A model generated the notes under the pieces. It ran no database searches and was not told the origin of the DNA. It worked only from the letters and a program-made list of their open reading frames with translations. Both the position numbers and the translations under genes were made by a program. 39,181 nt of DNA from a virus (lineage: Duplodnaviria > Caudoviricetes), in the IMG/VR virus record IMGVR_UViG_3300022307_000005, positions 1-39,181 of that record. One strand, 5' to 3'. Shown here in pieces: positions 11,131-36,557 of this stretch. The first letter of the stretch is position 1. Every line of letters starts with the position of its first letter.

Positions 11131-11889
11131 CTAACCCTCAGTTGTTTGTCCGGCCAAACCTAAATTTTTCAATAGGTCTTGATATTGTTTATCGGCTTTA
11201 ATGGACCCATATTTATTAATACCTACACTTGCCAATGACGTTATAAAATCCATATTAACATCATTTATAAACTGCTGATTACCCATATTTGCCTTGGAAA
11301 CCTCTATATCCATACCTAACTTGGCTTTTCTTTGATTTTGATACCAGTTTGAAAGGCCGGATAACGAATCCGCGTAAAGACGTTTGTTCATTGAATCAAC
11401 AGAAGCTACCACCCCCGCGGTTTGTAGCCCCAATTTTCCTTTATTTATAAAATAATTTCGGGCCATACTAATTCTATTGGCTTCCAATTTTTTATTATAA
11501 ACGGATTTCATGGCACTTACAGCGGCCTGATTTTCAATCTTCATTTGATCCGCTGTTTCTTTACGGATCTGACCGCGTGCGACCATCTGGTCAATATTTC
11601 TGCCGTATGATTTTGAGGCAAGGTCAACCCCGGCTTCCGTTACTTCTTTTTTTATATTGGCGAACTCCATGGTATATTTCGCCAAATCTTTTTCATTCAT
11701 ATCTGTGTGCGGAAGTGAAGAATATATAAGTTCCTTGACAGCCGGGTCACCGATACGAGTTTGCAATTGCTCCACAATATTTAACTGCATGCTCGCAATT
11801 TCCTTTTCCGTCTCTGTTACTTCCGGATATGTAACATCTATATTTTCGGGAGCGCCTAAAACTCCAAGGATATCACTCGCTGTCGCCAT
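11131..11889 (-). CDS. Small ejection (pilot-like) protein, apparent paralogue of 10364-11125
   Basis: Start MATASD after GAGGA; NIDVTYPEVTETE vs NVNVNYPAPTAEE. Confidence 0.6.
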   Translation of the reverse strand: MATASDILGVLGAPENIDVTYPEVTETEKEIASMQLNIVEQLQTRIGDPAVKELIYSSLPHTDMNEKDLAKYTMEFANIKKEVTEAGVDLASKSYGRNIDQMVARGQIRKETADQMKIENQAAVSAMKSVYNKKLEANRISMARNYFINKGKLGLQTAGVVASVDSMNKRLYADSLSGLSNWYQNQRKAKLGMDIEVSKANMGNQQFINDVNMDFITSLASVGINKYGSIKADKQYQDLLKNLGLAGQTTEG

Positions 11890-12334
11890 TGTCTTGATCC
11901 TCATTTAAACGTTTAAAATATCTCACCTGGACTTTCTTTGTGCCTTTTTTCTCAGTCCATTTTAACATTTCTTCACTGCCAGCAAAAGAAATAATTGTGG
12001 CCCCCTGATCCCTCATTTCATTTTCAAAATGATCAAACAGACCGTCAGCAACCCCCTGTTTTCGATATTTCTTTGAAGTGAATATTAATTGGCATATCCC
12101 TATTTTCTCTGCGGGATTAAATAGATAAGGAGCTATTCCCCCTCCAATAAGAGCCCCGCGCATTTCTTCTTCAAAATCAATCCAGGCAAACCCTCGGGCA
12201 ACTATTTCAAATAATCTATCTGAGAAACCGATTTTGTCGCAAGTTAATATACCAAAAACTTCAGCTTCCCTGAAATTCTCGTCAAGCTCCCTTACTAAAA
12301 AAGGGATGTCTTGGATTTCCATTTTTCTGATCAT
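11873..12334 (-). CDS. GNAT-family acetyltransferase (virion-operon type)
   Basis: MIRKMEIQDI start and FTSKKYRKQGVADGL acetyl-CoA motif; sits between tail and ejection genes as in many podoviruses. Confidence 0.85.
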   Translation of the reverse strand: MIRKMEIQDIPFLVRELDENFREAEVFGILTCDKIGFSDRLFEIVARGFAWIDFEEEMRGALIGGGIAPYLFNPAEKIGICQLIFTSKKYRKQGVADGLFDHFENEMRDQGATIISFAGSEEMLKWTEKKGTKKVQVRYFKRLNEDQDNGDSE

Positions 12335-12343
12335 AATTATCTC

Positions 12344-13123
12344 CTATTCATGAAGATATGATAAATAAAAAACAGCATGTTCAAACGTTGGGTCTGAACC
12401 ATCTGTAATACATTGAACTTCTATTCGAAATTGATCACCCGCTTCAGCTTCTATAAATAACGGTAAAGCCACATTGGTGTAATTGTTCGCCCCTGTGGTT
12501 GTAGCACCCTGAACATAGGCTTCTTGTCGTGTTTGAGTTATATTATACACTCGGATCTCAAAATCTTTAGTAGCCAGTCCATAAAATGTCATTGATAAAG
12601 TACCCGCATAATGCCCCGCGTTCGTGATTGTAAGAATATCGCCGGATACAGACATCCCAGCAGATTCAAGACCGGTCCATAAATCGTTTGTCCCGTTCGT
12701 TACCCAAGTCCATGTATCAACTGCGGCGATGGATATAGTTTCAGCTTCGCTCTGAAAACCACCATAGGCATGATACGGTGCGGTCTGTTTTACCAGATTA
12801 AACAAAGGTGATGAACCGGTCGCTATATCTTGCGGTAAAGCTAAAGTAATTGAAGAAGCCGCTATCGTTACGGTTATCTGATCGGTTGTTCCTAAAAGTT
12901 CTTTTAAAGATACTGCGTCCGCCCCATTTCCGACCATTATACTATCGGCTGTCAATGTCGTTAATCCTGTACCACCTTTCGGGACAGTGACTTGTGTAGA
13001 CAACGCCGTATCATTTAACTGTCCGCCACCTCGGACGTTAGAATGGTTATGGTTCGCGTTAGTGAAATCATCGATTGTTAATTTCTTTGATTCCGCGATT
13101 CTTTTTGTCTTTGAATCTCTCAC
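12344..13123 (-). CDS. Tail needle / short fibre with probable TNF/C1q-like C-terminal knob
   Basis: HNH..GGGQL trimer motif, VTVPKGGTGLTTL fibre repeat, beta-rich C-terminus; no signal peptide. Confidence 0.7.
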   Translation of the reverse strand: MRDSKTKRIAESKKLTIDDFTNANHNHSNVRGGGQLNDTALSTQVTVPKGGTGLTTLTADSIMVGNGADAVSLKELLGTTDQITVTIAASSITLALPQDIATGSSPLFNLVKQTAPYHAYGGFQSEAETISIAAVDTWTWVTNGTNDLWTGLESAGMSVSGDILTITNAGHYAGTLSMTFYGLATKDFEIRVYNITQTRQEAYVQGATTTGANNYTNVALPLFIEAEAGDQFRIEVQCITDGSDPTFEHAVFYLSYLHE

Positions 13124-15895: not shown

Positions 15896-16876
15896 TTAGG
15901 TGGCTTCAACCAGAACAGCAAGACCACTAGTATTGTTGGTGGGCGCTCCGCCGTCAATATAAGTTTTCGCTGACTCCGTGTTAGCCTCCCAATCTGTTGC
16001 CCCGATAAGCGTACAATTTTTCAGAATCAAAAGACCGTCCGGGCTTCCACCACCGGTTACATCAAAAGCCTCTGTCATGGTCGTACCGCTGGCTGTTCCT
16101 GTCGGCATGTTTACAAATAGACAGTTCTCAAAAAGGTTCCACCTGTCCAAACCATTAACAGGTACGAGCAAAAACTGGTGTCCTGCGGCTTCCGCGTAGG
16201 TCGGAAAAATACAATTCCGAAAAATGTTTCTCGTCGCACCACTTGCCAACCGCAATTCACTGTTCGCCGCAGTACCCCGCGCAATGGTATCGAGGCCAAT
16301 AACACAATCTTCGAACAGGTTTTCTGCACCACCCGATATTTGCAGAGAGTAGTTATTCGCGACGTCCTGCGTCGCATTCCCTATTCCTGCAATATGACAC
16401 CGGTAAAAATGGTTCCGGGAACCCGTTACATTGAGCGCTCCGATACTGTTTGCATCGGCAACACCATGAAAAATATGGATATTGGATACAAAACAATTAT
16501 TTGCGGAAAAAGTGATAAGCGGAGCGCATCCGGTTGCGGTAGAAAGCTGGGCGATTCTTGATCGTTGTCCAACCATACCCCCGCTATTTACACCAATAAG
16601 GCGGGTACCATCTTTACTCCAAGTTAATGTTGCGGAGAGATAATCCGTTGTACCGCTCGCACTATTATCTTCTGCGTACATATAAACAGTGTCTTGCTGG
16701 TCAGCACTGATCAATGTATGTGCCTGGGATAAAGTTTTTATGGCGGCGTCCAACGATTTACCGTTATGGCTGTCATTTCCGTTAGAAGGTTTCAGATGGT
16801 AGATATCCCCTTGAGTAATTAAACCCCCGATAGGAACACCCCCCATATGAAACAATTGATCCCCAAAAGTAGTCAT
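15896..16876 (-). CDS. Right-handed beta-helix (pectate-lyase-like) protein, probable head-associated
   Basis: GNDSHNGKS.DAAIKTLSQA cap and repeated N-x-F-x-x-C rungs (RNHFYRC, ENLFEDC, RNIFRNC, WNLFENC). Confidence 0.75.
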   Translation of the reverse strand: MTTFGDQLFHMGGVPIGGLITQGDIYHLKPSNGNDSHNGKSLDAAIKTLSQAHTLISADQQDTVYMYAEDNSASGTTDYLSATLTWSKDGTRLIGVNSGGMVGQRSRIAQLSTATGCAPLITFSANNCFVSNIHIFHGVADANSIGALNVTGSRNHFYRCHIAGIGNATQDVANNYSLQISGGAENLFEDCVIGLDTIARGTAANSELRLASGATRNIFRNCIFPTYAEAAGHQFLLVPVNGLDRWNLFENCLFVNMPTGTASGTTMTEAFDVTGGGSPDGLLILKNCTLIGATDWEANTESAKTYIDGGAPTNNTSGLAVLVEAT

Positions 16877-21896: not shown

Positions 21897-22131
21897 TTTC
21901 AAAATTCTCCAAGATAAGGAATTCAATCAATTCCGTACTCAACTCATACTTATATTTTTCATGAGAAAGATACACAAAAATTTCGGTGATTTTATCCTCT
22001 GCCAACCAATCTTGGAGCATCTTTTTTTCTTTACCCCCAAAGACTGGTACCTCGTTCTTCCGAAAAGTCCGAATATAATTGTGATTAAAAACCCTCTGAT
22101 TGCAAGGTGATTTATAATATCCTAAACCCAT
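21886..22131 (-). CDS. Hypothetical protein between TerL and portal
   Basis: Fills the gap, overlapping both neighbours; start MGLGYY uncertain. Confidence 0.5.
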   Translation of the reverse strand: MGLGYYKSPCNQRVFNHNYIRTFRKNEVPVFGGKEKKMLQDWLAEDKITEIFVYLSHEKYKYELSTELIEFLILENFENGE

Positions 22132-23761
22132 ACCTCCGCCTTTCCGGTTTTTCATAAAGCGGCTTGGACCCTCTCCCCGTAACACTGCCTTTCTGAAAAC
22201 CAATAAGATTTAAATCAGGCCTCGAAAACCGTTTCATTCTTTTATCTTTCCCGAATGCTTCAAGAACCATATTATCATGACTAAATTTCTCAATCGGTTT
22301 CTGATTAAGATCGTTTCTCGCTTTAGTAGCAACTCCTATATGCTCTGCAAAACGCCAATTTCGAATAGATTTATCAAACCTTGGGCAGGTCGAACAAACC
22401 CATAGAGTCGGAAGGACTTTTAGTTCGCCGTGGACCAAAGAACGATTATTAAAAGGTTTCCCAACTTTGGCCGCGTTCTTTAATCTTTTCCGAACTTCGT
22501 CTCTCCCCTTTTCGGTTTTAGTATCCCATGACTTAAAATAGCCAGCGGTGCCAATACCATGGTTCTGCCTTAAAGCCAAAAGGTGCCGATTGATATCCTG
22601 AATAACGGTCGTCCCACTGTTTGGTTGTTTCGCAGCCGCTAACGGATCGATAAGATCCACCGTATAATAATAAGCTCCACTTTTTCGGGCAATCCTTTTA
22701 CATATCTCTTCGGTCGTAAAAGCGAAAGCTCCATCTATCGCCGGGTGATCTTCCTGCCATAAAAACCATTCATCATCTTCCGAAGCCCAAAGCCATCCTA
22801 TTGACCATGGAACACGGCTATTATGATAATCTATCCCTCTCCCATGAATACCAGTAAAAGGAACGCCATCTGGAAAATAGGTATTGTAATCAATGAAATG
22901 AACCGCATGATTATAACTCTTATGAATCATTCCTGTCGCAGCTTTAAACACCCCATACCGGGAAGTCATAACCGTGTCCTCATCCTCCCCGGCAAAATTC
23001 TGTTCAATTTGTGCTTCGGTCAATATGGGGTTATCATCAGTCGCGATCTGAATGCATGCTATATTGGGATTCCCCGCTGGAAACTCTTCAAGTTGCTGCC
23101 CCCCTAAAGCCGCAATTATCTTATCGCTTTTATACAAACGGCTTTTGACTTGCCACATATCGTCGTATAAATAACTGATACCGCTCTTTGGTGTAAGCGT
23201 AATGATCAAATCCCCATCGGTCCCAATCAATCTTCTCTTTGATTCTTCGAGGTAAGGAAGCGGGGGCTCCTCATCCGCCCAAAGAGAATCCCTGTTAACC
23301 GAAGCTAAAGTCTGAAGATCCTGCTTCCAAGAAACAAACTCAAAATAACAGATGCCGTGAGTCGGACTTCGCACCGACATCACTGAACTTCGATTTGTGA
23401 CATCTTTTATAATAAGTTCTGGCGGAATCAATTCCTTCAACTCGATATAAGGGGCGCACCGGGATTCATCTTCTTCGTCAGTTAAAGGCCGAACAGCCGC
23501 AAGAATACGAATATGCTTTGCAAGCCTATTTCTCTCTTCCAGCGGGTGCATTCCATTTATTCTGAGCCAATATTCTTTAGCCGCAGAGTGCGTTTTACCG
23601 CCCCTGTTTCCGGCAAAGAAACCCCGTATCTTATGAGGTATATGAGTCATCTCATGAAAAAAATCCGTTGGCTTTGACTTCAACAAACTATTGAAAAGAA
23701 GCAAAGCTTTTTTATCGACGTATTCTAACCTGAGACTTGATTTTAACGCTGCTTGCACCAT
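22112..23761 (-). CDS. terL: Terminase large subunit
   Basis: Walker A AGNRGGKT, Walker B WADEEPP, motif III TLTP, DNP, nuclease GIDY and HD. Confidence 0.93.
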   Translation of the reverse strand: MVQAALKSSLRLEYVDKKALLLFNSLLKSKPTDFFHEMTHIPHKIRGFFAGNRGGKTHSAAKEYWLRINGMHPLEERNRLAKHIRILAAVRPLTDEEDESRCAPYIELKELIPPELIIKDVTNRSSVMSVRSPTHGICYFEFVSWKQDLQTLASVNRDSLWADEEPPLPYLEESKRRLIGTDGDLIITLTPKSGISYLYDDMWQVKSRLYKSDKIIAALGGQQLEEFPAGNPNIACIQIATDDNPILTEAQIEQNFAGEDEDTVMTSRYGVFKAATGMIHKSYNHAVHFIDYNTYFPDGVPFTGIHGRGIDYHNSRVPWSIGWLWASEDDEWFLWQEDHPAIDGAFAFTTEEICKRIARKSGAYYYTVDLIDPLAAAKQPNSGTTVIQDINRHLLALRQNHGIGTAGYFKSWDTKTEKGRDEVRKRLKNAAKVGKPFNNRSLVHGELKVLPTLWVCSTCPRFDKSIRNWRFAEHIGVATKARNDLNQKPIEKFSHDNMVLEAFGKDKRMKRFSRPDLNLIGFQKGSVTGRGSKPLYEKPERRRYGFRIL

Positions 23762-24362: not shown

Positions 24363-24686
24363 CTATACGTATTTTATAATGACTTTACAATTCGCGGCCG
24401 TATCGAGAGTACACTCGGAAATGTCAATAAAAGGTTCAAACCATTCCGGGGGATTCTGATACTCAATAGATGGGGTTGTGTCCGCCACGGCTAAACCGGA
24501 ATCAAAAATAACTTCCCCCCCAATCATTTTATTCCGAATGATCATTCGATCATTGGCGGCCGAAGGATAAAAAGCAAAACTCTTTATCTTCATATTCCCG
24601 TGAACTGCCGATGCATTCGAATCCCAATCGGCGTCAAGACCGGTGATTGTGATTGTTCTTCTTTTTTCTAAGGTTGTATTGGCCAT
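24363..24686 (-). CDS. Small beta-rich putative virion protein
   Basis: AAGGAG RBS; alternating beta-strand pattern; no signal peptide. Confidence 0.6.
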   Translation of the reverse strand: MANTTLEKRRTITITGLDADWDSNASAVHGNMKIKSFAFYPSAANDRMIIRNKMIGGEVIFDSGLAVADTTPSIEYQNPPEWFEPFIDISECTLDTAANCKVIIKYV

Positions 24687-24738: not shown

Positions 24739-25080
24739 CTAATCTTTAAACAACTCTTTACTTTTAACGAGCGATTCAATTATTTTTCCAGGGAGATCGT
24801 TTCCTATTTCTGTTATTCTGCCCTGGAGCGTATCCATTCCTACACGCATTTCGGTCTGCATATCTTTTAGTGTTTTTTCCATACGCTCTTGGCACTTAGA
24901 ACTCTCTGATTTTAATTGCACTCTAATATTTTCGTCCTGGTCAAAAAGTATCTTGTCATGCCGTCTCAGCTTTATAGATGCACGTGTGAACGTAGCAATC
25001 CAGCCGGCCAAGAAAGTTGTAGGCAAAATAAAACTTTTTAGCTTATCCCAAAAATCAGGGTCCAATGATGGATCAGACAT
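24739..25080 (-). CDS. Membrane-anchored coiled-coil protein (lysis-cassette type)
   Basis: One hydrophobic segment FILPTTFLAGWIATF followed by a coiled coil; adjacent to holin-like gene. Confidence 0.55.
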   Translation of the reverse strand: MSDPSLDPDFWDKLKSFILPTTFLAGWIATFTRASIKLRRHDKILFDQDENIRVQLKSESSKCQERMEKTLKDMQTEMRVGMDTLQGRITEIGNDLPGKIIESLVKSKELFKD

Positions 25081-25088
25081 GATGCTCC

Positions 25089-25310
25089 TTATTCTGTTTT
25101 AGGTTTTTCTTTACCCTTCTGAAATGTTTTTAATCCAAGCGCACCCAAGACAAGACCTATTTGTTCGATATCAAGCGGTAATAATTGCCCCTGTTTAATG
25201 CACGTATATGACCACGTAAGCATCACAATCAAACATATTAAAGCCGTTATCATCCTCATTGATGAAGGGTTCCCATTATCTTCTGATAAAATACGCGCTA
25301 AAAAGTTCAT
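25089..25310 (-). CDS. Putative class II holin
   Basis: 73 aa, SSMR motif, two TM segments, Lys-rich C-tail. Confidence 0.7.
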   Translation of the reverse strand: MNFLARILSEDNGNPSSMRMITALICLIVMLTWSYTCIKQGQLLPLDIEQIGLVLGALGLKTFQKGKEKPKTE

Positions 25311-25312
25311 AG

Positions 25313-26866
25313 TTACTCCCTAAAAATTATAGCCTTCCCATTTACAGGGTCACATATACCAACCTTACCATTTGCATTGTAAACGCCTGTTTTGCTGGTT
25401 GCTGCCGCCGCTCCAACAACACCGATTGTAAAACTGTTTGGACTCGGCGTGATGGTTGATCCGTAGGCAGTCGCGTTTGCTGGGATGTCTGCTATTGATA
25501 CTGTCTCCGTTTCTGAGCAATCATATCCGGCTGTTGCCGGAAGAGTTAGCGTTAAAACCGTGTCCGATGTACGGGTTAGATCGGTATACGCAAGAGACAC
25601 TTCAGTATCCCAATATCCGGCTCCGCTTTTATCACCATCAAAGATTGCAAGAAAGTCAGTGGTTATTTGGTTATCTGCCCCAATTGTTGCTGCCCACGTT
25701 GTATTAGTGAGCGTGAAAATTAAGGTGCGACCACCTGTGACTATGTCGTCTTCGTTTAAATCTGTTAGAGCTGTGCCTGTTACTCCGCAAGATATTGCCG
25801 ACAGCTCAAAACCTGCTGACGCGTCTCCATTTTCATCAACGACAAATAGATAAGCACCGTCAAGACTTGCAAAAGATCCTTGATTAACCGTAAAGGTTAT
25901 CTCACCGGCTGCCCATGCTGTGTGATTCTGGATTTCTCGGTGCGTACAGTTTGCAAATACTGCATTATCACCGATTTCCACACGAGCCCTTGAAGATGCA
26001 ATATACACGTCATCTATCCGTCCTGGAGTAAGCGATCCTCCGGTTCCAGGATCTCTGTTAAACTCCCAAAATGTAACCCACTCCCAATGTGCTGTCTCTC
26101 CACTTTCGTTTGTTATAATAGCAGACGGGTCTCTATCAGGACAAGGATCGCCATCATAAGTAGCATCAAGCCCCATTTGCTCGTGAAAAGTATCTCCTAC
26201 GCCGGTTTGCTGTATTTTATAGCTTACTGAACCATCTGCCGTTCCGTCAAATGTTCCTCCAGGCGCATTAGATTCAACAGCGTAAACTTCCATTCTAACC
26301 CACGTTTCGTCCGAAGGCACTAGATTGCTGTTATCATCAGCAAAAATATATCCACAGGTCGACGTCCCGGTTCCGTGAAGTGTTAGTGAAACACCAGGAG
26401 AACTATTTACATAGGCTACTATATACGATGGATAGCCAGTCACAGAATCTGGTCCTATATATAGGTGTTTATTATTATAGCTTTCTCCAAGAGATGCTGC
26501 GAAATCAAAATTTATCCAGTACGTTATATATACAGGTGATAACGTTGACCCATGCTGGTATACCATATCATCAGTTCCTTCGTCTGTATAAGCACACAAC
26601 GAAGATCCTGTTCTTTGGCCAGTGTTAGTATAAATTGGGTGATTATCCGCGTCTACTAATGCCCACCCGTTTCCAATATCATTATTATTTACACCACCTT
26701 CAAAATCATCCCATTTGTGTATAGTTGCGCCAGATCCATTGCTCCCACCAGTAATAACTATAGATTCTCCGTCACTAACTGTACCGCTTATGCTTGATAT
26801 TGTTGGCGCTGAGATCGCTACGGAAGGGATCAATAAAATTAATATGATAATTCTCATTATTCTCAC
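25313..26866 (-). CDS. Signal-peptide-bearing adhesin-like protein (Ig/IPT-like plus lectin-like domains)
   Basis: MRIIILILLIPSVAIS-A N-terminus; APTISSISG..ITG, WDDFE, WVRMEVY, IDDVYI, ARVEIGD; acidic and Thr-rich. Confidence 0.7.
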   Translation of the reverse strand: MRIMRIIILILLIPSVAISAPTISSISGTVSDGESIVITGGSNGSGATIHKWDDFEGGVNNNDIGNGWALVDADNHPIYTNTGQRTGSSLCAYTDEGTDDMVYQHGSTLSPVYITYWINFDFAASLGESYNNKHLYIGPDSVTGYPSYIVAYVNSSPGVSLTLHGTGTSTCGYIFADDNSNLVPSDETWVRMEVYAVESNAPGGTFDGTADGSVSYKIQQTGVGDTFHEQMGLDATYDGDPCPDRDPSAIITNESGETAHWEWVTFWEFNRDPGTGGSLTPGRIDDVYIASSRARVEIGDNAVFANCTHREIQNHTAWAAGEITFTVNQGSFASLDGAYLFVVDENGDASAGFELSAISCGVTGTALTDLNEDDIVTGGRTLIFTLTNTTWAATIGADNQITTDFLAIFDGDKSGAGYWDTEVSLAYTDLTRTSDTVLTLTLPATAGYDCSETETVSIADIPANATAYGSTITPSPNSFTIGVVGAAAATSKTGVYNANGKVGICDPVNGKAIIFRE

Positions 26867-27588
26867 GGGACTATATCCAATACAAGCGCCATTGATGCGC
26901 TTTCATCATTAGCGGACCACACTAATGTTTTTGTGATAGCTCCAGCGTTCCTAAGTTCATAATACCCAGCGATGGCAAGTGAACTAAGTGTTTCAGTGCC
27001 TATTACTGTCACTGAATCTGGAGCGGTATTTACCGTTTTCCCGCCTTCGTTGGCGTATACAACGATCAAAATAGAATCGTCGGTGCAAGTTACTGATCCT
27101 GTAGTTATCGATGATTGAGAATTTGGAATTTCGCTGGTATTTGACGCTTGATCAAGATCCCATGTTCCTCCGGTTTTAGATAACGTGATTATTACTCCCG
27201 CACAATATGTGCCGCTCCCATTTTCATCGAAATCATATGGACCGGACTCAGCAGCAGCAGCAGTTTTTGAAAAAGCGACTAACCCAGGGCCATTACCGAC
27301 AGTGTGCCAATATGAACTCATTTGAGCCCACCCAGAACATGACCATGTTGGCTCAGTTGATTGATCATCAGCGATGATAGCTATCATCTGGTGGCCCTCT
27401 GTCGTACCAACAGGCATTGTAAGCGCAAAGGCATCGGTAGAGTTTGATTGCGCCGAGCTAACGCCAATTATGGATATTGGGCTGCCAGCTTCAGACGTTA
27501 CAGCACCGCCCATAACCATTAGATGGTTAAAGGCACTGGCTTTAGAAACTAAAAACAGTAACATAAATAAGGTGATTATATTTTTCAT
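26863..27588 (-). CDS. Signal-peptide-bearing fibre-tip-like protein
   Basis: Start 27588 (TAATG overlap) MKNIITLFMLLFLVSKASA|; LTMPVGTTEGH..SGW..KTA..ESGPY resembles a common phage tail-tip beta domain. Confidence 0.7.
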   Translation of the reverse strand: MKNIITLFMLLFLVSKASAFNHLMVMGGAVTSEAGSPISIIGVSSAQSNSTDAFALTMPVGTTEGHQMIAIIADDQSTEPTWSCSGWAQMSSYWHTVGNGPGLVAFSKTAAAAESGPYDFDENGSGTYCAGVIITLSKTGGTWDLDQASNTSEIPNSQSSITTGSVTCTDDSILIVVYANEGGKTVNTAPDSVTVIGTETLSSLAIAGYYELRNAGAITKTLVWSANDESASMALVLDIVP

Positions 27589-28946
27589 TAATCTGCTGCA
27601 CCTCCATCGGTCGGTATAGCTCCCACATATCCAGTTACTTTCCAAACCTCAGCCGCAACGCACATCACACATACTTGACTACCGTCAATGTCAAGTTCAT
27701 TCCCTGCTGTCAGGGCGGCATCAATATCACCTATTACAAACTGATTGGAGGCGTCGAGAGAGGTTAGACTGTTTTGGTCTTCATCGTCTGTTATTACACA
27801 CACCCAATTGCCAACGTCTCCAGCGGCGTTACATTCACCGTCTGGGATATCTACGTCGCCGGCACCAGTCATATAAACAACTGATCTCATTTGAGCTGAA
27901 GTTAAAGCGATTCCGTCAGCATCAGTTATAAAATATGGGTTTGCTTGGAGCGTTGAAAACGACTCTGAAGATTGTTTCCCGCCATCCTCATACCACCTAT
28001 CAGTTGAGTAGACCAACGTGATAGTTGCATTTTGTTGCAGTGTTTTTGTAGATGAAAGCTGCTGCTGCCCCTCAACGGTCGCCATATCACATGTGGTCGC
28101 GCCAACAATTACTATTTTAACAGTGTCTCCGTCCTCAGCATTCGTCTCTGACATCTGTAAACTTACGTTAGAAGTATGCGGAGTGATTTCTATTATCTCA
28201 TACTCTTTATTTGCCGTCTTAGCTATCGTGTACGGATCTGCGTCCGTTGTGTAGCCGGTAGTGTAAGCTTGGCTTTCAGCTATATTCGCAACGTTTGTCC
28301 CTACCGCGGTGTCAATTGCAGCGTATAGTTCATTTAATGTATCATCGCCAGCGGCACCGTAGTTAGTATATGTACTCCCGTTATTGAGTCCTATTGCTGT
28401 ACTCCCTGCAAGAGCTCCGTCATCAAGTAAAGTCGCATCGGTCAAGGCTGAATTTAAATTTGCTATTGATGGTGTGGCAAGAAAAGATGCGATATTAGCC
28501 GCGAGCCCACTTACACCGGTAGATATTGGCAGACCGGTTGCATTCGTTAAAGTTCCGCTTGAAGGGGTTCCGAGCGCTCCGTCAAATAAAATAGGCGCTC
28601 CAGCAGAACCGATATTTATACCCAAAGCTGTCTCAACACCTGTACCAAAGCTTATCACGTCCTGAAACGCGCTTGCTTCTTCTCCGTCAAGCAAGTCAGC
28701 ATTTAAGTTCGTAACAACGGTTGTAGATGCAACCTGAAAAGGCGATGTCCCGGTAGCTTGATCAGAGATAAACCTCAATCCGGTTATCGTAAACGGGCCA
28801 ATATCCCAATTGTCAGTCATTTCTACTGTGCCATCTGCTAAAATATCGCCGGTTCCTGAAGATGACGGAGGTATCGCAGGTGGGCCCCCTGCATATACAT
28901 TAAAACAAAAAAACAATAGGAATAAAAAAATAAATAATTTTTTCAT
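27588..28946 (-). CDS. Signal-peptide-bearing tail-fibre-like protein
   Basis: MKKLFIFLFLLFFCFNVYA|; fibre motifs DGTVEMTDNWDIG, VTNLNADLLDG, LGTPSSGTLTNATGLP. Confidence 0.78.
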   Translation of the reverse strand: MKKLFIFLFLLFFCFNVYAGGPPAIPPSSSGTGDILADGTVEMTDNWDIGPFTITGLRFISDQATGTSPFQVASTTVVTNLNADLLDGEEASAFQDVISFGTGVETALGINIGSAGAPILFDGALGTPSSGTLTNATGLPISTGVSGLAANIASFLATPSIANLNSALTDATLLDDGALAGSTAIGLNNGSTYTNYGAAGDDTLNELYAAIDTAVGTNVANIAESQAYTTGYTTDADPYTIAKTANKEYEIIEITPHTSNVSLQMSETNAEDGDTVKIVIVGATTCDMATVEGQQQLSSTKTLQQNATITLVYSTDRWYEDGGKQSSESFSTLQANPYFITDADGIALTSAQMRSVVYMTGAGDVDIPDGECNAAGDVGNWVCVITDDEDQNSLTSLDASNQFVIGDIDAALTAGNELDIDGSQVCVMCVAAEVWKVTGYVGAIPTDGGAAD

Positions 28947-28955
28947 GGTAACTCC

Positions 28956-29420
28956 TTATTCAACCCAACATAAAAAATAAACCGTAACCTGATCTCCTGC
29001 ATCTCCTATATCATTTAAAGCAATGTTAAGCTCTGATACTATCGGTGGGTATGGACCCAAGTCTTCATATAGTTTATGCCATGTACCAGCATTTTGAGAC
29101 ATCCCGGTATCTGACCACAATTCAGCGTCGAATTCATTTGTAATAGTTATGTTTATGGTCGTGTTTGGTATTACCGCACCTGTTCCAGGCAGCACATAAC
29201 AAACCATCAAAGATGATCCCCTTATCGAGCTTAATAATCCACTAAGCCCTGACTCTGCTAATAAATTAGTTGCGGTCAAAGCGTTGCCGTCTGAGGTTAA
29301 AGTAGCGGACCAATAAAGATAATTTTTGTATCTTGACACCTTGGCAGCATCTATTGTCCATGCAGCCCATGCAGATTGGCTAAAAAGCAAAAAACATATA
29401 ATTAAAAATAATCTTTTCAT
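28956..29420 (-). CDS. Signal-peptide-bearing small beta-sandwich protein
   Basis: MKRLFLIICFLLFSQSAWA|; poly-G RBS. Confidence 0.72.
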   Translation of the reverse strand: MKRLFLIICFLLFSQSAWAAWTIDAAKVSRYKNYLYWSATLTSDGNALTATNLLAESGLSGLLSSIRGSSLMVCYVLPGTGAVIPNTTINITITNEFDAELWSDTGMSQNAGTWHKLYEDLGPYPPIVSELNIALNDIGDAGDQVTVYFLCWVE

Positions 29421-29511
29421 TTAAATACCCCCCCCATTTTTACTGTCTCAATATCATTTCTATAAGGTTATATTTTAAACATCTTATCTTTATATCTATT
29501 TACCAACATTT

Positions 29512-31662
29512 TTACGGGAACGAATACCCGGCTGTCCATGTTCCAGGGGTGCCAGCAACAGTACACTGCCAATATGATGGCTGACCACTTGCCGCGCCAG
29601 TATTAAAAACAATATCGCCTTGAGACCAAGCGCCTGCGACAGGCGCGGCAGCCCCAAATTTTATATGGTTGGTTCCCATAAGAATATAATTATCGCCACC
29701 ATTTGCTCCTACTTGAATGTTTTTACCGGCAATTATATCATCAGACGCCCTAAAATTACCATCACTTCTTAAATTTTGGTAATATGTGCAGTTTGTATAG
29801 GTTACAGTCCCAGATACGTTTTTAAAAATAGCAGATGATGATGCACCGATAAAACTTTGGGTACAGTTACTATTTGAAACATTAAGCTTTGTAGTCCACC
29901 AATGCATCGCTCCTGCCGAACCGCCAGAGATATAAACGTTATTAACATCAATAAGATCAGATACCGCAGTAGCGCACTCAATAATGTCTGAATTGGCGTT
30001 AGGGTAGACCCCTAAATTAGATATTTTGCCGCTATACGCACCGTTGAGCTTTATTATGTCTTTATTTAATGTTCCGCTGGTATCTCTAATATAGATACTA
30101 TTTAACTCGAATCCATATACAGGTTGAAAATCAAATATACTTCCAGATGCAGTGCTTAATATTCTCGCTCCATCAACCGTAACATTACGAGTTAGCGTTC
30201 CAGACGAAACAATTTGAAATAGCGATGATGTATTAGCGCATTCCACATTTAAATTTTTAAAGTGGACCCCTTCGATACTCCCTCCAGTTGCATCCAGTTT
30301 AATTAATCCAGTACCGACATAAAAATTATTAAATAAATAGCCAACATTGTATCCAGTCATGTTTAACGTAAAATAACTTGGGTCGTCTAATTCAACAAAT
30401 ATATTACTAAACTCAGAATATCCGGCTGAAGTTGCCCTATAAATTAATATACCGCCAACGCCGGTGATATCTATATTAGAATATGTATTTTCATTCGCAT
30501 ACCAACAATATAGTCCATACCCTGTTGCCCCTGATCCACCCTGATTAATCAGTCGTAAGTCATGGACATTAGCCCTATACGCCTGCACCCTTAAAATATT
30601 CCCATCAAGATCATGCCCATCAATTGTCATATCAGATATTTCATGAGCAGCGAACGACCCTGAAGTTACAACAACATTAGTCCCACTTATTTTATATAAA
30701 TATGTTCCTCCGTTGTCATCAACAGAACGTATCCCAGCACCCTGTAATTTCTGCCCATCTTTTAAAATGGAATGCCCCCCAGTAGTTCCATAATAACCGT
30801 TTCCAAGTTTAACATTTTTGCCGGTATAAAGAGCATGGTCAATCGCATCGGTGCAATCCGTCACAGTCCCAATAGACGCAGCAGATACACATCCCCACTG
30901 TTCTGGCGAAACCTCTGTTATATTGCTGTTCTCTGTTGGATATATTATATGGCCAGTTCCATTTCCCCAATCAAATATTTGTTGAGAATTTTCTGCGTTA
31001 ATAGACCCCCCCCAAGTAAACGATGCGTTATTTGCGTCGTCAACTATTCTTGCGCCAGTTTCAAACTCAAGAGTAATATTGGTATACGCTGAAGCACCCC
31101 ATGTTGTTGAACACGTATAGTCAGTCGTATTCCCGCCGCTTGTATGCCGAAAGATGATTGTGGCTTTTTCAGAAGTCCCAACAGCTACCGCCAAATCATA
31201 AAATGAATCCCCGCTTCCGGCTGTACACTGATCCGATTCCGAAACATCGACCTGATAGACATTTCCTATTTCTAAAACTCCGTTTTGATCTGTAACGTTT
31301 ACTCCGGTCGCGTTTAAATTAGAAACATTGGCCGTTACTATCGTAGCGGTCGTTCCAAGAATTGAAGTGGCACCAACGACATCAACTTGGACCGTCCCAT
31401 GGCTTGAATTTAACGTATTCGCCGTAACTACGTCCCCCGTAACAGAATCAAACGTTCCTGTTCGAACACCCCCGGTCAAATCTATGCAATCCGCCGCCCC
31501 CCCAGAAGTTCGAATTTTAGTTACATCGTCAACATTTCCAGAAGTATCTTTAGTAACTGTAATACGTGTGGCAGATTCTAACCAATTATTATGAAAAAAA
31601 TTTCCGAAGACAAGAAAGCCCAAATATAATAAAGCTACCGAAAGAATAATTTTACTTTTCAC
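29512..31662 (-). CDS. Tailspike-like beta-helix protein with N-terminal signal/anchor
   Basis: Likely GTG start 31662 (MKSKIILSVALLYLGFLVFG); VSPEQWG..DCTDAIDHAL pectate-lyase-3-like cap, beta-helix rungs, C-terminal AP..GAWSQGDIVFN..WQC..GTPGTW. Confidence 0.8.
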   Translation of the reverse strand: MKSKIILSVALLYLGFLVFGNFFHNNWLESATRITVTKDTSGNVDDVTKIRTSGGAADCIDLTGGVRTGTFDSVTGDVVTANTLNSSHGTVQVDVVGATSILGTTATIVTANVSNLNATGVNVTDQNGVLEIGNVYQVDVSESDQCTAGSGDSFYDLAVAVGTSEKATIIFRHTSGGNTTDYTCSTTWGASAYTNITLEFETGARIVDDANNASFTWGGSINAENSQQIFDWGNGTGHIIYPTENSNITEVSPEQWGCVSAASIGTVTDCTDAIDHALYTGKNVKLGNGYYGTTGGHSILKDGQKLQGAGIRSVDDNGGTYLYKISGTNVVVTSGSFAAHEISDMTIDGHDLDGNILRVQAYRANVHDLRLINQGGSGATGYGLYCWYANENTYSNIDITGVGGILIYRATSAGYSEFSNIFVELDDPSYFTLNMTGYNVGYLFNNFYVGTGLIKLDATGGSIEGVHFKNLNVECANTSSLFQIVSSGTLTRNVTVDGARILSTASGSIFDFQPVYGFELNSIYIRDTSGTLNKDIIKLNGAYSGKISNLGVYPNANSDIIECATAVSDLIDVNNVYISGGSAGAMHWWTTKLNVSNSNCTQSFIGASSSAIFKNVSGTVTYTNCTYYQNLRSDGNFRASDDIIAGKNIQVGANGGDNYILMGTNHIKFGAAAPVAGAWSQGDIVFNTGAASGQPSYWQCTVAGTPGTWTAGYSFP

Positions 31663-31667
31663 TTTTT

Positions 31668-31919
31668 TTAAACACCTTTCTTTAAACAAGCGGCTATAAA
31701 AGGATCGTGGGGTTCTAACTGATCTTTCAAATACTCAAGAAAACATTCGGCATCACAAAACAATTTATATTCCGAATTATTATGAACAATACGCCTCTCA
31801 CCGGTTGATTCATCAAGTTCAATAACCAGTTTTACCCGATAGCGCAGTCTATCTTTTTTAACCGCTGCTGTCGTTTCGCTATCGCAGTTATCACAAATCG
31901 GTGTTATTGTAAAACCCAT
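31668..31919 (-). CDS. Small zinc-finger (TRASH-like) protein
   Basis: CDNC ... FCDAEC. Confidence 0.65.
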   Translation of the reverse strand: MGFTITPICDNCDSETTAAVKKDRLRYRVKLVIELDESTGERRIVHNNSEYKLFCDAECFLEYLKDQLEPHDPFIAACLKKGV

Positions 31920-32521
31920 AAATCTTCCTCTTTTTCAGAGGAGTTGTCTTCCTCCAGATTCACATCTATAATCTCTCCCACTTCGCAGTCTGCCATACCG
32001 GACCCACCGGTAACAAACTGAGCAATCGCTTGTAGAGTGCCTCTATCCAATTGAAAATTGGCCCCCTCAGCGTTTAAAATATTGTTCATGATAGTCGTGG
32101 GTTGTTTAGAAGGAGAAATGTTTAAAATAGAATGAAACTCTTGAATGGCACTCAACTGAACTTTTTCGCTCGCCGCGTTTTTACAAAGATTAATAAACTT
32201 ATCGCTTATATCATCTATTTCTTCGGCATACCGAGCAACAACCCCTTGTACGGCTTGCTGGATATCTTTATTCTTCAGCCGAAGATTTGTAGCTGTACGA
32301 ACCGAAAGCCCGTACTGCCCCGCAATAAAGTTATCAATCTCATGTTTGGGTTTCCCCTCCAACATCATCCGGGTTACATCTTTGGCTATATTGGAGTTTC
32401 TTGTCGCAAGATTGGGATGAGTGTTTGTGGCCAGTGCCTTGCCGGTACTGGTAAGAGGTGGATATGTCAAAGTGGAAACAGTCTCTTTATTTTTTTTTTG
32501 GCTTTTCTTCTTCGCCGCCAT
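31904..32521 (-). CDS. Putative terminase small subunit
   Basis: First gene of late operon; HTH-like IAGQYGLSVRTA, SEKVQLSAIQE, acidic EIIDV tail. Confidence 0.55.
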   Translation of the reverse strand: MAAKKKSQKKNKETVSTLTYPPLTSTGKALATNTHPNLATRNSNIAKDVTRMMLEGKPKHEIDNFIAGQYGLSVRTATNLRLKNKDIQQAVQGVVARYAEEIDDISDKFINLCKNAASEKVQLSAIQEFHSILNISPSKQPTTIMNNILNAEGANFQLDRGTLQAIAQFVTGGSGMADCEVGEIIDVNLEEDNSSEKEEDLWVLQ

Positions 32522-32771: not shown

Positions 32772-33383
32772 TTATATTACATCCCAATAAGCGTCCTTAA
32801 TCTCTTCCTCTTGAACGCAAAGGTAATCAAGAGTTTGCTTCTGGCTGGAATGATTAAACATTGTCATCAGCACCGGCAAACCAACCCCTTTCTGTCTCTT
32901 CATATAACCGAAAGTCTTTCTCAAAGAATGAGACCCAAAATTTCCTTTTATCCCACAAGCCCGAGCCCAACTTTTCACTTTCGCGTTTAACCCAGGCACG
33001 GTCACCCGCCCCCGCTGCCCAAAGAACAAAGCCTCTTCGAGCCCAATACCTCTCCGTTTCCATTTCTTCAGGTTATTTATAACTCTCACCGCATCAGCGT
33101 TCAAAAGAACCACCCTCGGCTTCTGAGTCTTCTTTTCCCGAAGAAGTATCTTAGGCATATCTTTTGAGTTTTTAGGAACCTCAAGATCCTCAACCTGGTA
33201 ATTACAAATCCCCAAAAGATCAACGGCCCTCAAATTGGTATTTATCCCCACGACAAACAACGCCAGATCGAGCGGTTTATCTTTCAGAAAATTCTTAATC
33301 TTCGAAATACTTTTCTCAGTTTTAAAAGGCTCAACTTTAATTATAGAGCCTTTTTTTGGATGATTAGGATTTTTTAGTGCCAT
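32772..33383 (-). CDS. Short tyrosine recombinase (catalytic domain only)
   Basis: R (TNLR), K (EKKT), HSLRK, NHSS, Y (DYL); 203 aa, no arm- or core-binding domain evident. Confidence 0.93.
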   Translation of the reverse strand: MALKNPNHPKKGSIIKVEPFKTEKSISKIKNFLKDKPLDLALFVVGINTNLRAVDLLGICNYQVEDLEVPKNSKDMPKILLREKKTQKPRVVLLNADAVRVINNLKKWKRRGIGLEEALFFGQRGRVTVPGLNAKVKSWARACGIKGNFGSHSLRKTFGYMKRQKGVGLPVLMTMFNHSSQKQTLDYLCVQEEEIKDAYWDVI

Positions 33384-35400: not shown

Positions 35401-35604
35401 ATGACACTTTCAGCAAAACGAATATACCGAATAAACCGTAAAAACCATACCGAAACATTAACATACAAGACATGCATGGACTGCGTAATAAACGGAAAAT
35501 ACCTGCCGTTAAACGGCATCGTAATAAGCGCGAAACCGGAATTCATAATGGATAGAAATGACAAACCTTTCTGGTGCGCAACATGCGGGAACAAAATAAC
35601 CTAA
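35401..35604 (+). CDS. Small zinc-finger protein
   Basis: CMDC ... CATC; AAGGAG RBS. Confidence 0.65.
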   Translation: MTLSAKRIYRINRKNHTETLTYKTCMDCVINGKYLPLNGIVISAKPEFIMDRNDKPFWCATCGNKIT

Positions 35605-35621
35605 CCAAGGAGATATATAAA

Positions 35622-36557
35622 ATGACACATTCAAAATATTGGGATGATTTTCAACGTAGAGCCCGCGAAACAGTGTATTGTCTTCAAAATAATAAACCAG
35701 TTCCCGTTCGTAGAGTTGCTGTATTTATCACTAACCAGTGTAACTTTAGATGTTCATATTGCAATCACAGTCAGGATAAAAAACAGATGCAGCGAGAAGT
35801 ATTTGAAAAAATTATAGAGGATAACCGGGATGCCATTATTCATATTACAGGAGGGGAGCCTTCTACAGTTTCTTGGTTGTATGACTTTATAGATTCAACT
35901 CCGGGAGTCCGATTTCATTTAAACACCAACGGGTTTATTAAACCACCCAGAAATATTCAAAGATTAAAAGCTTCGTTGGATACAGTATCTCCAAAATATT
36001 TTGATTTCATAACTGGTACGTCAGGTGCATATAATAAAGTTATGCAGCACATTCAAGAAGCAAGTTTATATACTACTGTTAGCATTACCTATACGCTCAC
36101 AAAAGAGAATTATTTACTCGCACCCTCTTTTATGCGCCAAGTTAGAAAAACATTCCCCAAGGTATATGCTACTTTTTTCAGCGTTTATAAGGGAACAAAT
36201 CCGAGATTTATGTTTAATGAAGAATCTGCAAATGATTTTTTTGAAAATGTAAAATACAACCTCGAACTGGAGATGGATGAAGAAAGTTACCGGTTGTTTC
36301 AGGAAACCATAACAGAAAAACAGAGAATTATGCAGGGAATTAGATTCCCAGAAAACAAAATTGAAACCCCGTGTTATCTTTCTATGTCAGAAAGGGTATT
36401 TTCCCCCTCGGGAGAAAAATTTAACTGTTCTCATTTATACCGAGACAGTATTCAACACGTAAGGCATAACATTCAAAGTCGATGCCAATATGGATGTAAT
36501 ACAAGGTTGGCTCAATTTAATCAAGATGTAGCCGCTAAGCTGACTCAAGGGCCATAA
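35622..36557 (+). CDS. Radical SAM enzyme with C-terminal Twitch/SPASM-like cysteines
   Basis: CNFRCSYC, ITGGEP, NTNG, ASLD; CYLS..FNCSH..RCQYGC; AAGGAG RBS before ATG 35622. Confidence 0.92.
   Translation: MTHSKYWDDFQRRARETVYCLQNNKPVPVRRVAVFITNQCNFRCSYCNHSQDKKQMQREVFEKIIEDNRDAIIHITGGEPSTVSWLYDFIDSTPGVRFHLNTNGFIKPPRNIQRLKASLDTVSPKYFDFITGTSGAYNKVMQHIQEASLYTTVSITYTLTKENYLLAPSFMRQVRKTFPKVYATFFSVYKGTNPRFMFNEESANDFFENVKYNLELEMDEESYRLFQETITEKQRIMQGIRFPENKIETPCYLSMSERVFSPSGEKFNCSHLYRDSIQHVRHNIQSRCQYGCNTRLAQFNQDVAAKLTQGP

Follow-up and report, generated by a model that had tools for sequence, protein, structure and literature searches.

A late-operon cassette of five leader-bearing proteins in an uncultured short-tailed phage, and a possible route for joining exported appendages to phage particles at lysis

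Tailed-phage particles are taught as being completed in the cytoplasm, and why five consecutive late genes of such a phage should open with export leaders is the question raised by the DNA analysed here, a virus record of IMG/VR (IMGVR_UViG_3300022307_000005, positions 1 to 39,181; hereafter the window) that is one whole contig of an uncultured, short-tailed phage. The five genes form a cassette on the minus strand: g716 (29512-31662, with a GTG start), g154 (28956-29420), g452 (27588-28946), g241 (26863-27588) and g517 (25313-26857, or 26866). The reading that we favour, with chances slightly better than even, is that of a swappable host-recognition module of the late operon, whose products are exported through Sec, cleaved and joined to the particles at lysis. 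Within this reading, export of the five leader-bearing products is, judging by their sequences, very probable, and their joining to particles, once export is granted, would be rather probable.

Leaders were called with a heuristic of our own, made of a basic residue, a hydrophobic window of nine residues and an AxA-like site, and not with a trained predictor. From the 49 open reading frames (ORFs) of the window the rule picks exactly these five, all of them adjacent, which bears out the initial annotation in its claim of five consecutive late genes with signal-type N-termini. The same annotation had described capsid, adaptor, nozzle and needle as free of such signals, and in fact no leader is carried by the portal, capsid, SU10-type adaptor, nozzle or ejection-type proteins of the head-tail block; as a control, homologues of terminase, portal, capsid, adaptor, nozzle and neighbouring proteins were taken from related contigs, and a single protein out of 265 was flagged. 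Over 80 terminase-related loci the rule flags 31 of 725 ORFs of at least 120 amino acids (aa). The assigned starts are backed by overlap with the preceding stop in g241 and g517 and by GGAG or GGGG upstream in g452 and g154, and no downstream in-frame start with a ribosome site was found within the first 60 codons of the five genes, which speaks against true starts lying behind the leaders. Features of Sec export and of signal peptidase I cleavage (basic n-region, hydrophobic h-region, small residues at -3 and -1) are clear in g154, g452, g241 and g517 and weaker in g716. Four leaders end in canonical AxA-like sites; that of g716, with a long c-region and a weak cut site, is the least canonical and could be an uncleaved anchor.

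The history of these leaders is best followed through g154, which we take as the conserved marker gene of the cassette and whose product would be a candidate particle-side adaptor. It encodes a leader and a predicted single jelly roll in 154 aa (AlphaFold2 predicted local distance difference test, pLDDT, 90). The structure matches generic jelly rolls (best Z 8.6; Z 7.2 for the KHP40 cement protein), the nearest predicted folds are phage proteins of 125-141 aa (TM 0.63-0.66), and Bbp16 is a weak Atlas lead (score 0.79, 15% of members). Single-sequence searches of viral contigs with the terminase large subunit (TerL) or with g154 gave no match. On the other hand, 20 close homologues of g154 were assembled (41-53% identity), 19 of which keep the leader, a point that the initial annotation had proposed to check, and scans with their alignment led to 52 loci, the window itself included; loci are cited below by their L numbers. 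Alignments of distant leaderless relatives yielded no loci. The wider family was gathered by a profile search of a representative library, which gave 149 proteins; after keeping lengths of 120-180 aa and at least 38 bits on a profile of the mature part only, adding earlier matches and dropping four truncated or ambiguous rows, 117 rows were left, 93 leader-bearing and 24 leaderless.

The leaderless rows start with M-x-W-T or nearly so, that is, with the start expected after cleavage between AxA and xW, the cut register that dominates the family, and the position of the cut is thereby fixed. In a quick tree of the family the leader label changes 11 times (mean for shuffled labels, 22), with at least six changes forced by branches with support of at least 95. 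In the DNA of L004 and L030 a ribosome site lies right before the short g154 start, no in-frame leader precedes it, and the next fibre genes keep their leaders. A second family occurs in both states, as seen in L099 versus L044 and L050. Export through Sec, as initially proposed, is thus supported by leaders that are real and conserved and by natural leaderless relatives that start at the predicted cut. Moreover, the sequences suggest that g154 may function regardless of the side of the membrane that it comes from, which would suit a step that takes place once the two compartments have mixed. The two cysteines of g154 are not conserved as a pair, and the gene is mostly found beside tail or lysis genes and at times beside head genes.

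What such a marker would travel with is illustrated by g452, in which the leader is followed by a Pro-Pro N-terminal arm, fibre shaft repeats, a beta-sandwich of the XD1 type (about residues 227-328) and a second, C-terminal beta domain; only the short Pro-rich arm lies N-terminal to the shaft. The shaft motifs have counterparts in Thermus phage proteins named 'distal tail fiber' and in the tail proteins of other phages, with at least 6352 database proteins matched; this motif class is mostly made of leaderless phage proteins, and a leader is present in 5 of the 119 top matches. A model of residues 225-452 (six rows, pLDDT 68) returned for the first domain 6o38 (Z 10.8), the tailspike of phage Solidus (Z 9.2), the capsid spike of Pa223 (Z 7.1) and also T4-type baseplates, well above unrelated rows, and it aligns 93-95 residues with residues 78-181 of CBA120 TSP4 (Z 7.7-7.9, root-mean-square deviation 3.4-3.6). 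This TSP4 domain is named XD1 and described as a spacer in the available part of PMC8825819, where 6o38 and 4dny are given as the secreted bacterial proteins CpaA and StcE. The last domain, seen within the same 225-452 model, has matches of Z around 3 only, and the docking domains XD2 and XD3 were not detected. As modelled, the XD1 fold would fit a virion appendage as well as a secreted glycan binder. No PHROGs match was obtained for the N-terminal parts of the cassette fibres, and the leaderless fibres of relatives match phrog_1640; g716 may still have a particle-binding domain of a novel kind. A complex prediction for three copies of g154 with three of g452 residues 20-55 scored 0.07 (mark 0.32) and carries no weight either way.

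The remaining members are more heterogeneous. In g716 a leader precedes a tailspike-like body and a fibre-type C-terminal motif: its last 82 aa match the tail fibre family phrog_23059 (E 4e-7) and SPO1 gp18.1-type proteins (E 5e-3 to 9e-3), residues 267-349 weakly match a Klebsiella tailspike (E 5e-3), and residues 132-230 are common to leader-bearing proteins of the cassettes L021 and L024; a beta-helix was seen by eye only, with no Pfam match and no PDB sequence match. The candidate tip adhesin g241 has a leader, a short hydrophobic strand with a Gly linker and then a further domain; it matches no family at E <0.01 and has no homologue in the fetched loci, and a mature start resembling it recurs, by eye, in the third gene of L004, L014, L021, L036 and L047. 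The leader of g517 is followed by a multidomain protein, a candidate glycan-binding or glycan-cutting part, with domains common to leader-bearing cassette proteins in L053 (E 3e-19) and L135; it has no significant family match, its Atlas matches score below 0.9 and are leads only, and neither g517 nor P0332 has a match in GenBank phages. Fibre or spike motifs, initially attributed to all five proteins, therefore hold for g452 and g716, and not for g154, a predicted single jelly roll, nor for g241 and g517, which lack a significant family match. Two leaderless, fibre-like genes of the same phage lie outside the cassette: g326 (15896-16876), after the capsid gene and conserved in relatives, and g259 (12344-13123), after the nozzle gene and with a weak tail-fibre match.

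In other phages two to four leader-bearing genes usually stand together, with the g154 homologue at their head, and cassettes of this kind span phage types as different as those with a P22-type coat (L010), an S49 head protease (L009) or a phrog_1640-type tail fibre (L004, L007, L014, L051); another cassette phage, L036, has a 1200-aa gene read as a tape measure. A leaderless phrog_1640-type fibre lies just upstream of the cassette in those four loci, and the cassette is hence an extra there. The proposal that the cassette is the adsorption apparatus of the phage keeps the support of the fibre parts in g452 and g716 and has to be narrowed in view of several other phages, where it comes in addition to an ordinary leaderless tail fibre. 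In 23 of 27 distinct loci a leader opens the gene that follows the g154 homologue. Pro-x(0-3)-Pro is seen at the cut in 23 of the 27, and the remainder of the protein beyond this motif varies freely. The leader-bearing fibre of L014 has a shaft segment in common (E 1e-22) with two leaderless fibres of the TerL relative L092, which carry a long N-terminal domain in place of the leader and occupy the same pre-TerL slot, where lysis-type genes are also present. As for the location between the terminase small subunit (TerS) and TerL, whose conservation in homologues had been proposed as a check, 10 of the 80 TerL-related loci extend at least 7 kilobases (kb) upstream and a leader cassette is there in just one, the closest (L053, 48%), whose cassette holds a remote relative of g154 (hhalign probability 93.8, with the leader in the alignment) and a g517 homologue; in L099 three leader-bearing genes stand directly before TerL. 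The pre-TerL slot can thus hold fibres in this lineage, and the location is not fixed. Among cassette partners elsewhere are proteins with beta-helix or polysaccharide-deacetylase domains, and in L008, L036 and L047 the cassette is followed by cell-wall hydrolases. Small leader-bearing proteins of 108-133 aa, fibronectin-like by eye, also stand beside cassettes (L053 75-401; L009 4043-4384 and 13590-13946; L099 1772-2173).

A cultured precedent for leader-bearing virion proteins is Cellulophaga phage phi18:3 (GenBank KC821620), in which three adjacent genes, gp085 to gp087, start with basic-hydrophobic leaders of the Sec type. Their products are marked as structural by tandem mass spectrometry in the GenBank record, which leaves the leaders unremarked, and six other structural proteins annotated by mass spectrometry that we examined have no leader. 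The likeness to the cassette lies in the leaders and the virion annotation, and PHROGs files the three with virion, tail-fibre and pectate-lyase families; the host however belongs to the Bacteroidota and the cut is before Gln, so the likeness is one of trait and not of demonstrated homology. In the filamentous phages M13 and fd, pIII and pVIII also have Sec leaders, and the virion adsorption protein folds on the periplasmic side; these proteins are membrane-anchored and added during extrusion without lysis, and the phages are not tailed. The cassette proteins, on the contrary, have no C-terminal anchor. Single jelly-roll cement or decoration proteins (KHP40, GP4, Bbp16 of BPP-1) have the fold and size of g154 (Z 6.8-7.2), although its Z is no better to them than to unrelated jelly rolls; to our knowledge, known cement proteins lack a leader. 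Branched tailspikes (CBA120 TSP1-4, G7C gp66/gp63.1, T4 gp9/gp10) resemble the cassette in the XD1-type domain of g452, in having several spike-like genes in a row and in one likely scaffold; we know of no leader in any of them. They differ in being anchored by an N-terminal domain, as far as the available part of PMC8825819 describes them, and in g452 the docking domains XD2/XD3 were not detected. Finally, the MAT fibres of Bdellovibrio are phage-fibre-like and have signal peptides, but they are, in the available part of PMC10769870, chromosomal surface adhesins with a conserved 130-aa domain after the leader, in contrast to a phage late operon with a short Pro-Pro arm. A literature search whose coverage was thin for subscription papers and excluded supplements showed us no account of tailed phages with virion appendages exported through Sec, and the phi18:3 proteomics tables could bear on this claim. 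What is newly added here is a marker family that has lost its leader repeatedly, along with a Pro-Pro arm that is conserved; the cassette is a real feature, probably a variant of phage host-recognition appendages, and it would be categorically new if two-compartment assembly were shown.

Put together, the favoured reading would run as follows. The five genes would be transcribed with the terminase genes and expressed late, and their products would pass through Sec into the periplasm, where the leaders would be cleaved. The cleaved products might then assemble into a branched fibre-and-spike appendage with variable tips, in which g154 would serve as the adaptor facing the particle, g452 would use its freed Pro-Pro arm as a docking tag in place of the usual particle-binding domain, and g241, g517 and g716 would be receptor-binding or glycan-cutting tips. 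This appendage would dock on cytoplasm-built particles once the compartments mix at lysis. The gain from export could be periplasmic folding or modification, or the keeping apart of sticky or sugar-cutting parts until release. Joining to finished particles has parallels in vitro for T4 long fibres, P22 tailspikes and capsid decoration proteins. The reading is also favoured by the XD1-type fold, common to tailspikes of virions, baseplates and a capsid spike (available part of PMC8825819). We give an even chance to the broader proposal of a second, two-compartment assembly route in tailed phages, by which a portable module, composed of a jelly-roll adaptor whose xWT start is free, a fibre that docks by its freed Pro-Pro arm and tips that vary, would be built in the periplasm and snap onto any type of head or tail only at lysis, and leader gain or loss would shift a virion part between compartments with its mature start unchanged.

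Several points weigh against this reading. This phage is known here from its genes alone, and no surface of its capsid or tail could be named as the partner. The phage keeps the leaderless, fibre-like g326 and g259, so a cassette on the particle may not be needed, and the gene after the g154 homologue is leaderless and unrelated in 3 of the 27 loci. The g154-family counts are biased toward leader-bearing rows, as the search profile included the leader; the tree is built on few columns and leaves many forks open; and, of the 24 leaderless rows, 22 were taken from protein databases, the DNA having been checked for L004 and L030 only. The modelled XD1 fold occurs also in secreted CpaA and StcE, CpaA being the top match of g452. 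With regard to phi18:3, mass spectrometry of purified virions can include co-purifying material, and its proteins have no demonstrated homology to the cassette. Cysteine counts, moreover, give export no reason here: mature cassette proteins have 1.2-1.6% cysteine, below the leaderless g326 (2.15%), and the number is odd in four of the five. In related loci leader-bearing proteins have 1.26% cysteine versus 0.53% in others, with an even, non-zero count in 25 of 42. Oxidative folding, initially offered as a reason for export, finds no backing in the window, where cysteines are neither enriched nor paired. Enrichment in N-x-S/T was considered as another reason and set aside, being not above that of the leaderless fibre-like genes of the same phage.

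Export can also be accepted and the particle left out. The cassette products might come free at lysis as a soluble complex of their own, with depolymerase or lectin activity. This complex could clear a way through capsule or biofilm for the progeny or take up receptors left on debris, and such a release would accord with the lack of an anchor and of a recognised particle-binding domain, with the beta-helix and polysaccharide-deacetylase partners in relatives, and with cassettes that often adjoin lysis genes and often are additional to a normal tail fibre. It leaves unexplained, however, both the conserved jelly-roll marker gene with the Pro-Pro arm and the mass-spectrometric detection of leader-bearing proteins in phi18:3 virions, and we consider it unlikely. 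Somewhat less likely still is secretion onward by a host system such as type II secretion, with the products acting as a mask, decoy or adhesin on the outside of infected or lysogenic cells. The phage does encode a tyrosine recombinase, the top fold match CpaA is a secreted bacterial protein (available part of PMC8825819), and Bdellovibrio displays the signal-peptide-bearing, phage-fibre-like MAT proteins (available part of PMC10769870). Nevertheless, no lipobox, Tat motif, second hydrophobic helix or LPxTG was found in the five proteins, which disfavours the display on the infected cell contemplated by the initial annotation, and a lipobox-like pattern is present in 3 of 79 leader-bearing proteins of related loci, none of them a cassette fibre. 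Leaderless versions of g154 could not function outside the cell, and the genes, placed within the late operon, show no outstanding promoter of their own.

The leaders might instead be membrane tethers or signal anchors from which particles collect parts at the inner membrane before or during its breakdown, with no free periplasmic assembly. The long c-region and weak cut site of the g716 leader and the small membrane genes that follow the cassette would suit such a scheme, whereas the canonical AxA-like sites of four leaders and the leaderless relatives that start at the cut point to cleavage, and we regard it as improbable. That the leaders are an artefact of wrong starts, or a neutral trait, unneeded and carried over from host genes, is the least credible explanation, with a very small chance: leader loss is tolerated in g154 and the leaders were called by our own heuristic, but they persist among homologues of 40-50% identity and in different phage types and go with coupled starts, by which the artefact is largely refuted.

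If the favoured reading is true, host recognition in these phages would depend on host export and on periplasmic folding and modification, and would need an extra step after lysis. It would explain some uncultured phages without a recognisable tail-docking domain; phage 'secreted carbohydrate enzymes', at present classed with metabolic genes, may belong to the virion; and the way in which such receptor-binding proteins must be expressed would change. Natural pairs with and without the leader, together with the cultured phi18:3, make the route directly testable.

As to the surroundings of the cassette, the plus strand of the contig encodes a family A polymerase, an exonuclease and a single-stranded DNA-binding protein, and the minus-strand set comprises a tyrosine recombinase, the small terminase, the cassette, the large terminase, portal, capsid, SU10-type adaptor, a nozzle-like protein, a GNAT protein and cysteine-free ejection-type proteins. 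The two ends of the contig do not overlap and the primase-helicase appears truncated, so that a stretch of some kilobases may be lacking; the late operon seems to be whole. Among the sequencing runs listed for this DNA, one DNA run holds it and may be its source, and no RNA run does. The upstream border of the cassette is TerS (31904..32521, minus; phrog_2538, E 2.7e-4), preceded by a sigma-70-like site (32619-32590) with 11 of 12 consensus positions, although a scan for such sites gave a number not above that in shuffled sequences. Directly after the cassette come two small membrane-type genes of 73 and 113 aa (24739..25310, minus), holin-like by hydropathy only and with no significant family match, and TerL (22112..23761, minus) opens the head-tail block. 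Nearby g107 (24363-24686) was considered as a leaderless paralogue of g154 and rejected, as no match was found. Family searches recognised no endolysin in the contig, and one may sit in a missing part; relatives encode cell-wall hydrolases and lipoproteins. The sigma-70-like and GGAG ribosome sites point to a bacterium as host; matches of the tyrosine recombinase come from several phyla at no more than 46% identity, and the bins with homologues are of mixed taxa and were not trusted for host assignment.

Other genes of the contig and of its relatives deserve a mention. The GNAT acetyltransferase (11873-12334, minus) lies inside the tail block, ahead of the ejection-type genes, and similar genes occupy the same place in L004 and L007. 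The short tyrosine recombinase (203 aa; 32772-33383, minus), just upstream of the late operon, would be an integrase or a resolvase, and a radical SAM gene with a QueE-like match (35574-36557, plus) lies among small early genes, with a possible role in DNA modification or metabolism. Among TerL relatives, P0199, P0211, P0213, P0223-P0226 and P0258 are 650-950 aa long and have intein or homing-endonuclease domains. The gene right after the capsid gene is mostly leaderless and head-fibre-like in these relatives, with an export leader in 3 of 30 distinct cases (L059 8147-8914, equal to L060 15835-16602; L065 6893-7680; L110 7805-8278). The L059/L060 gene was considered as a leader-grafted head fibre, but a profile of five leaderless ones gave no match and the likeness is positional only. 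It is followed by a multi-pass membrane gene, O-antigen-ligase-like by eye (L060 16697-17407; L059 9009-10004).

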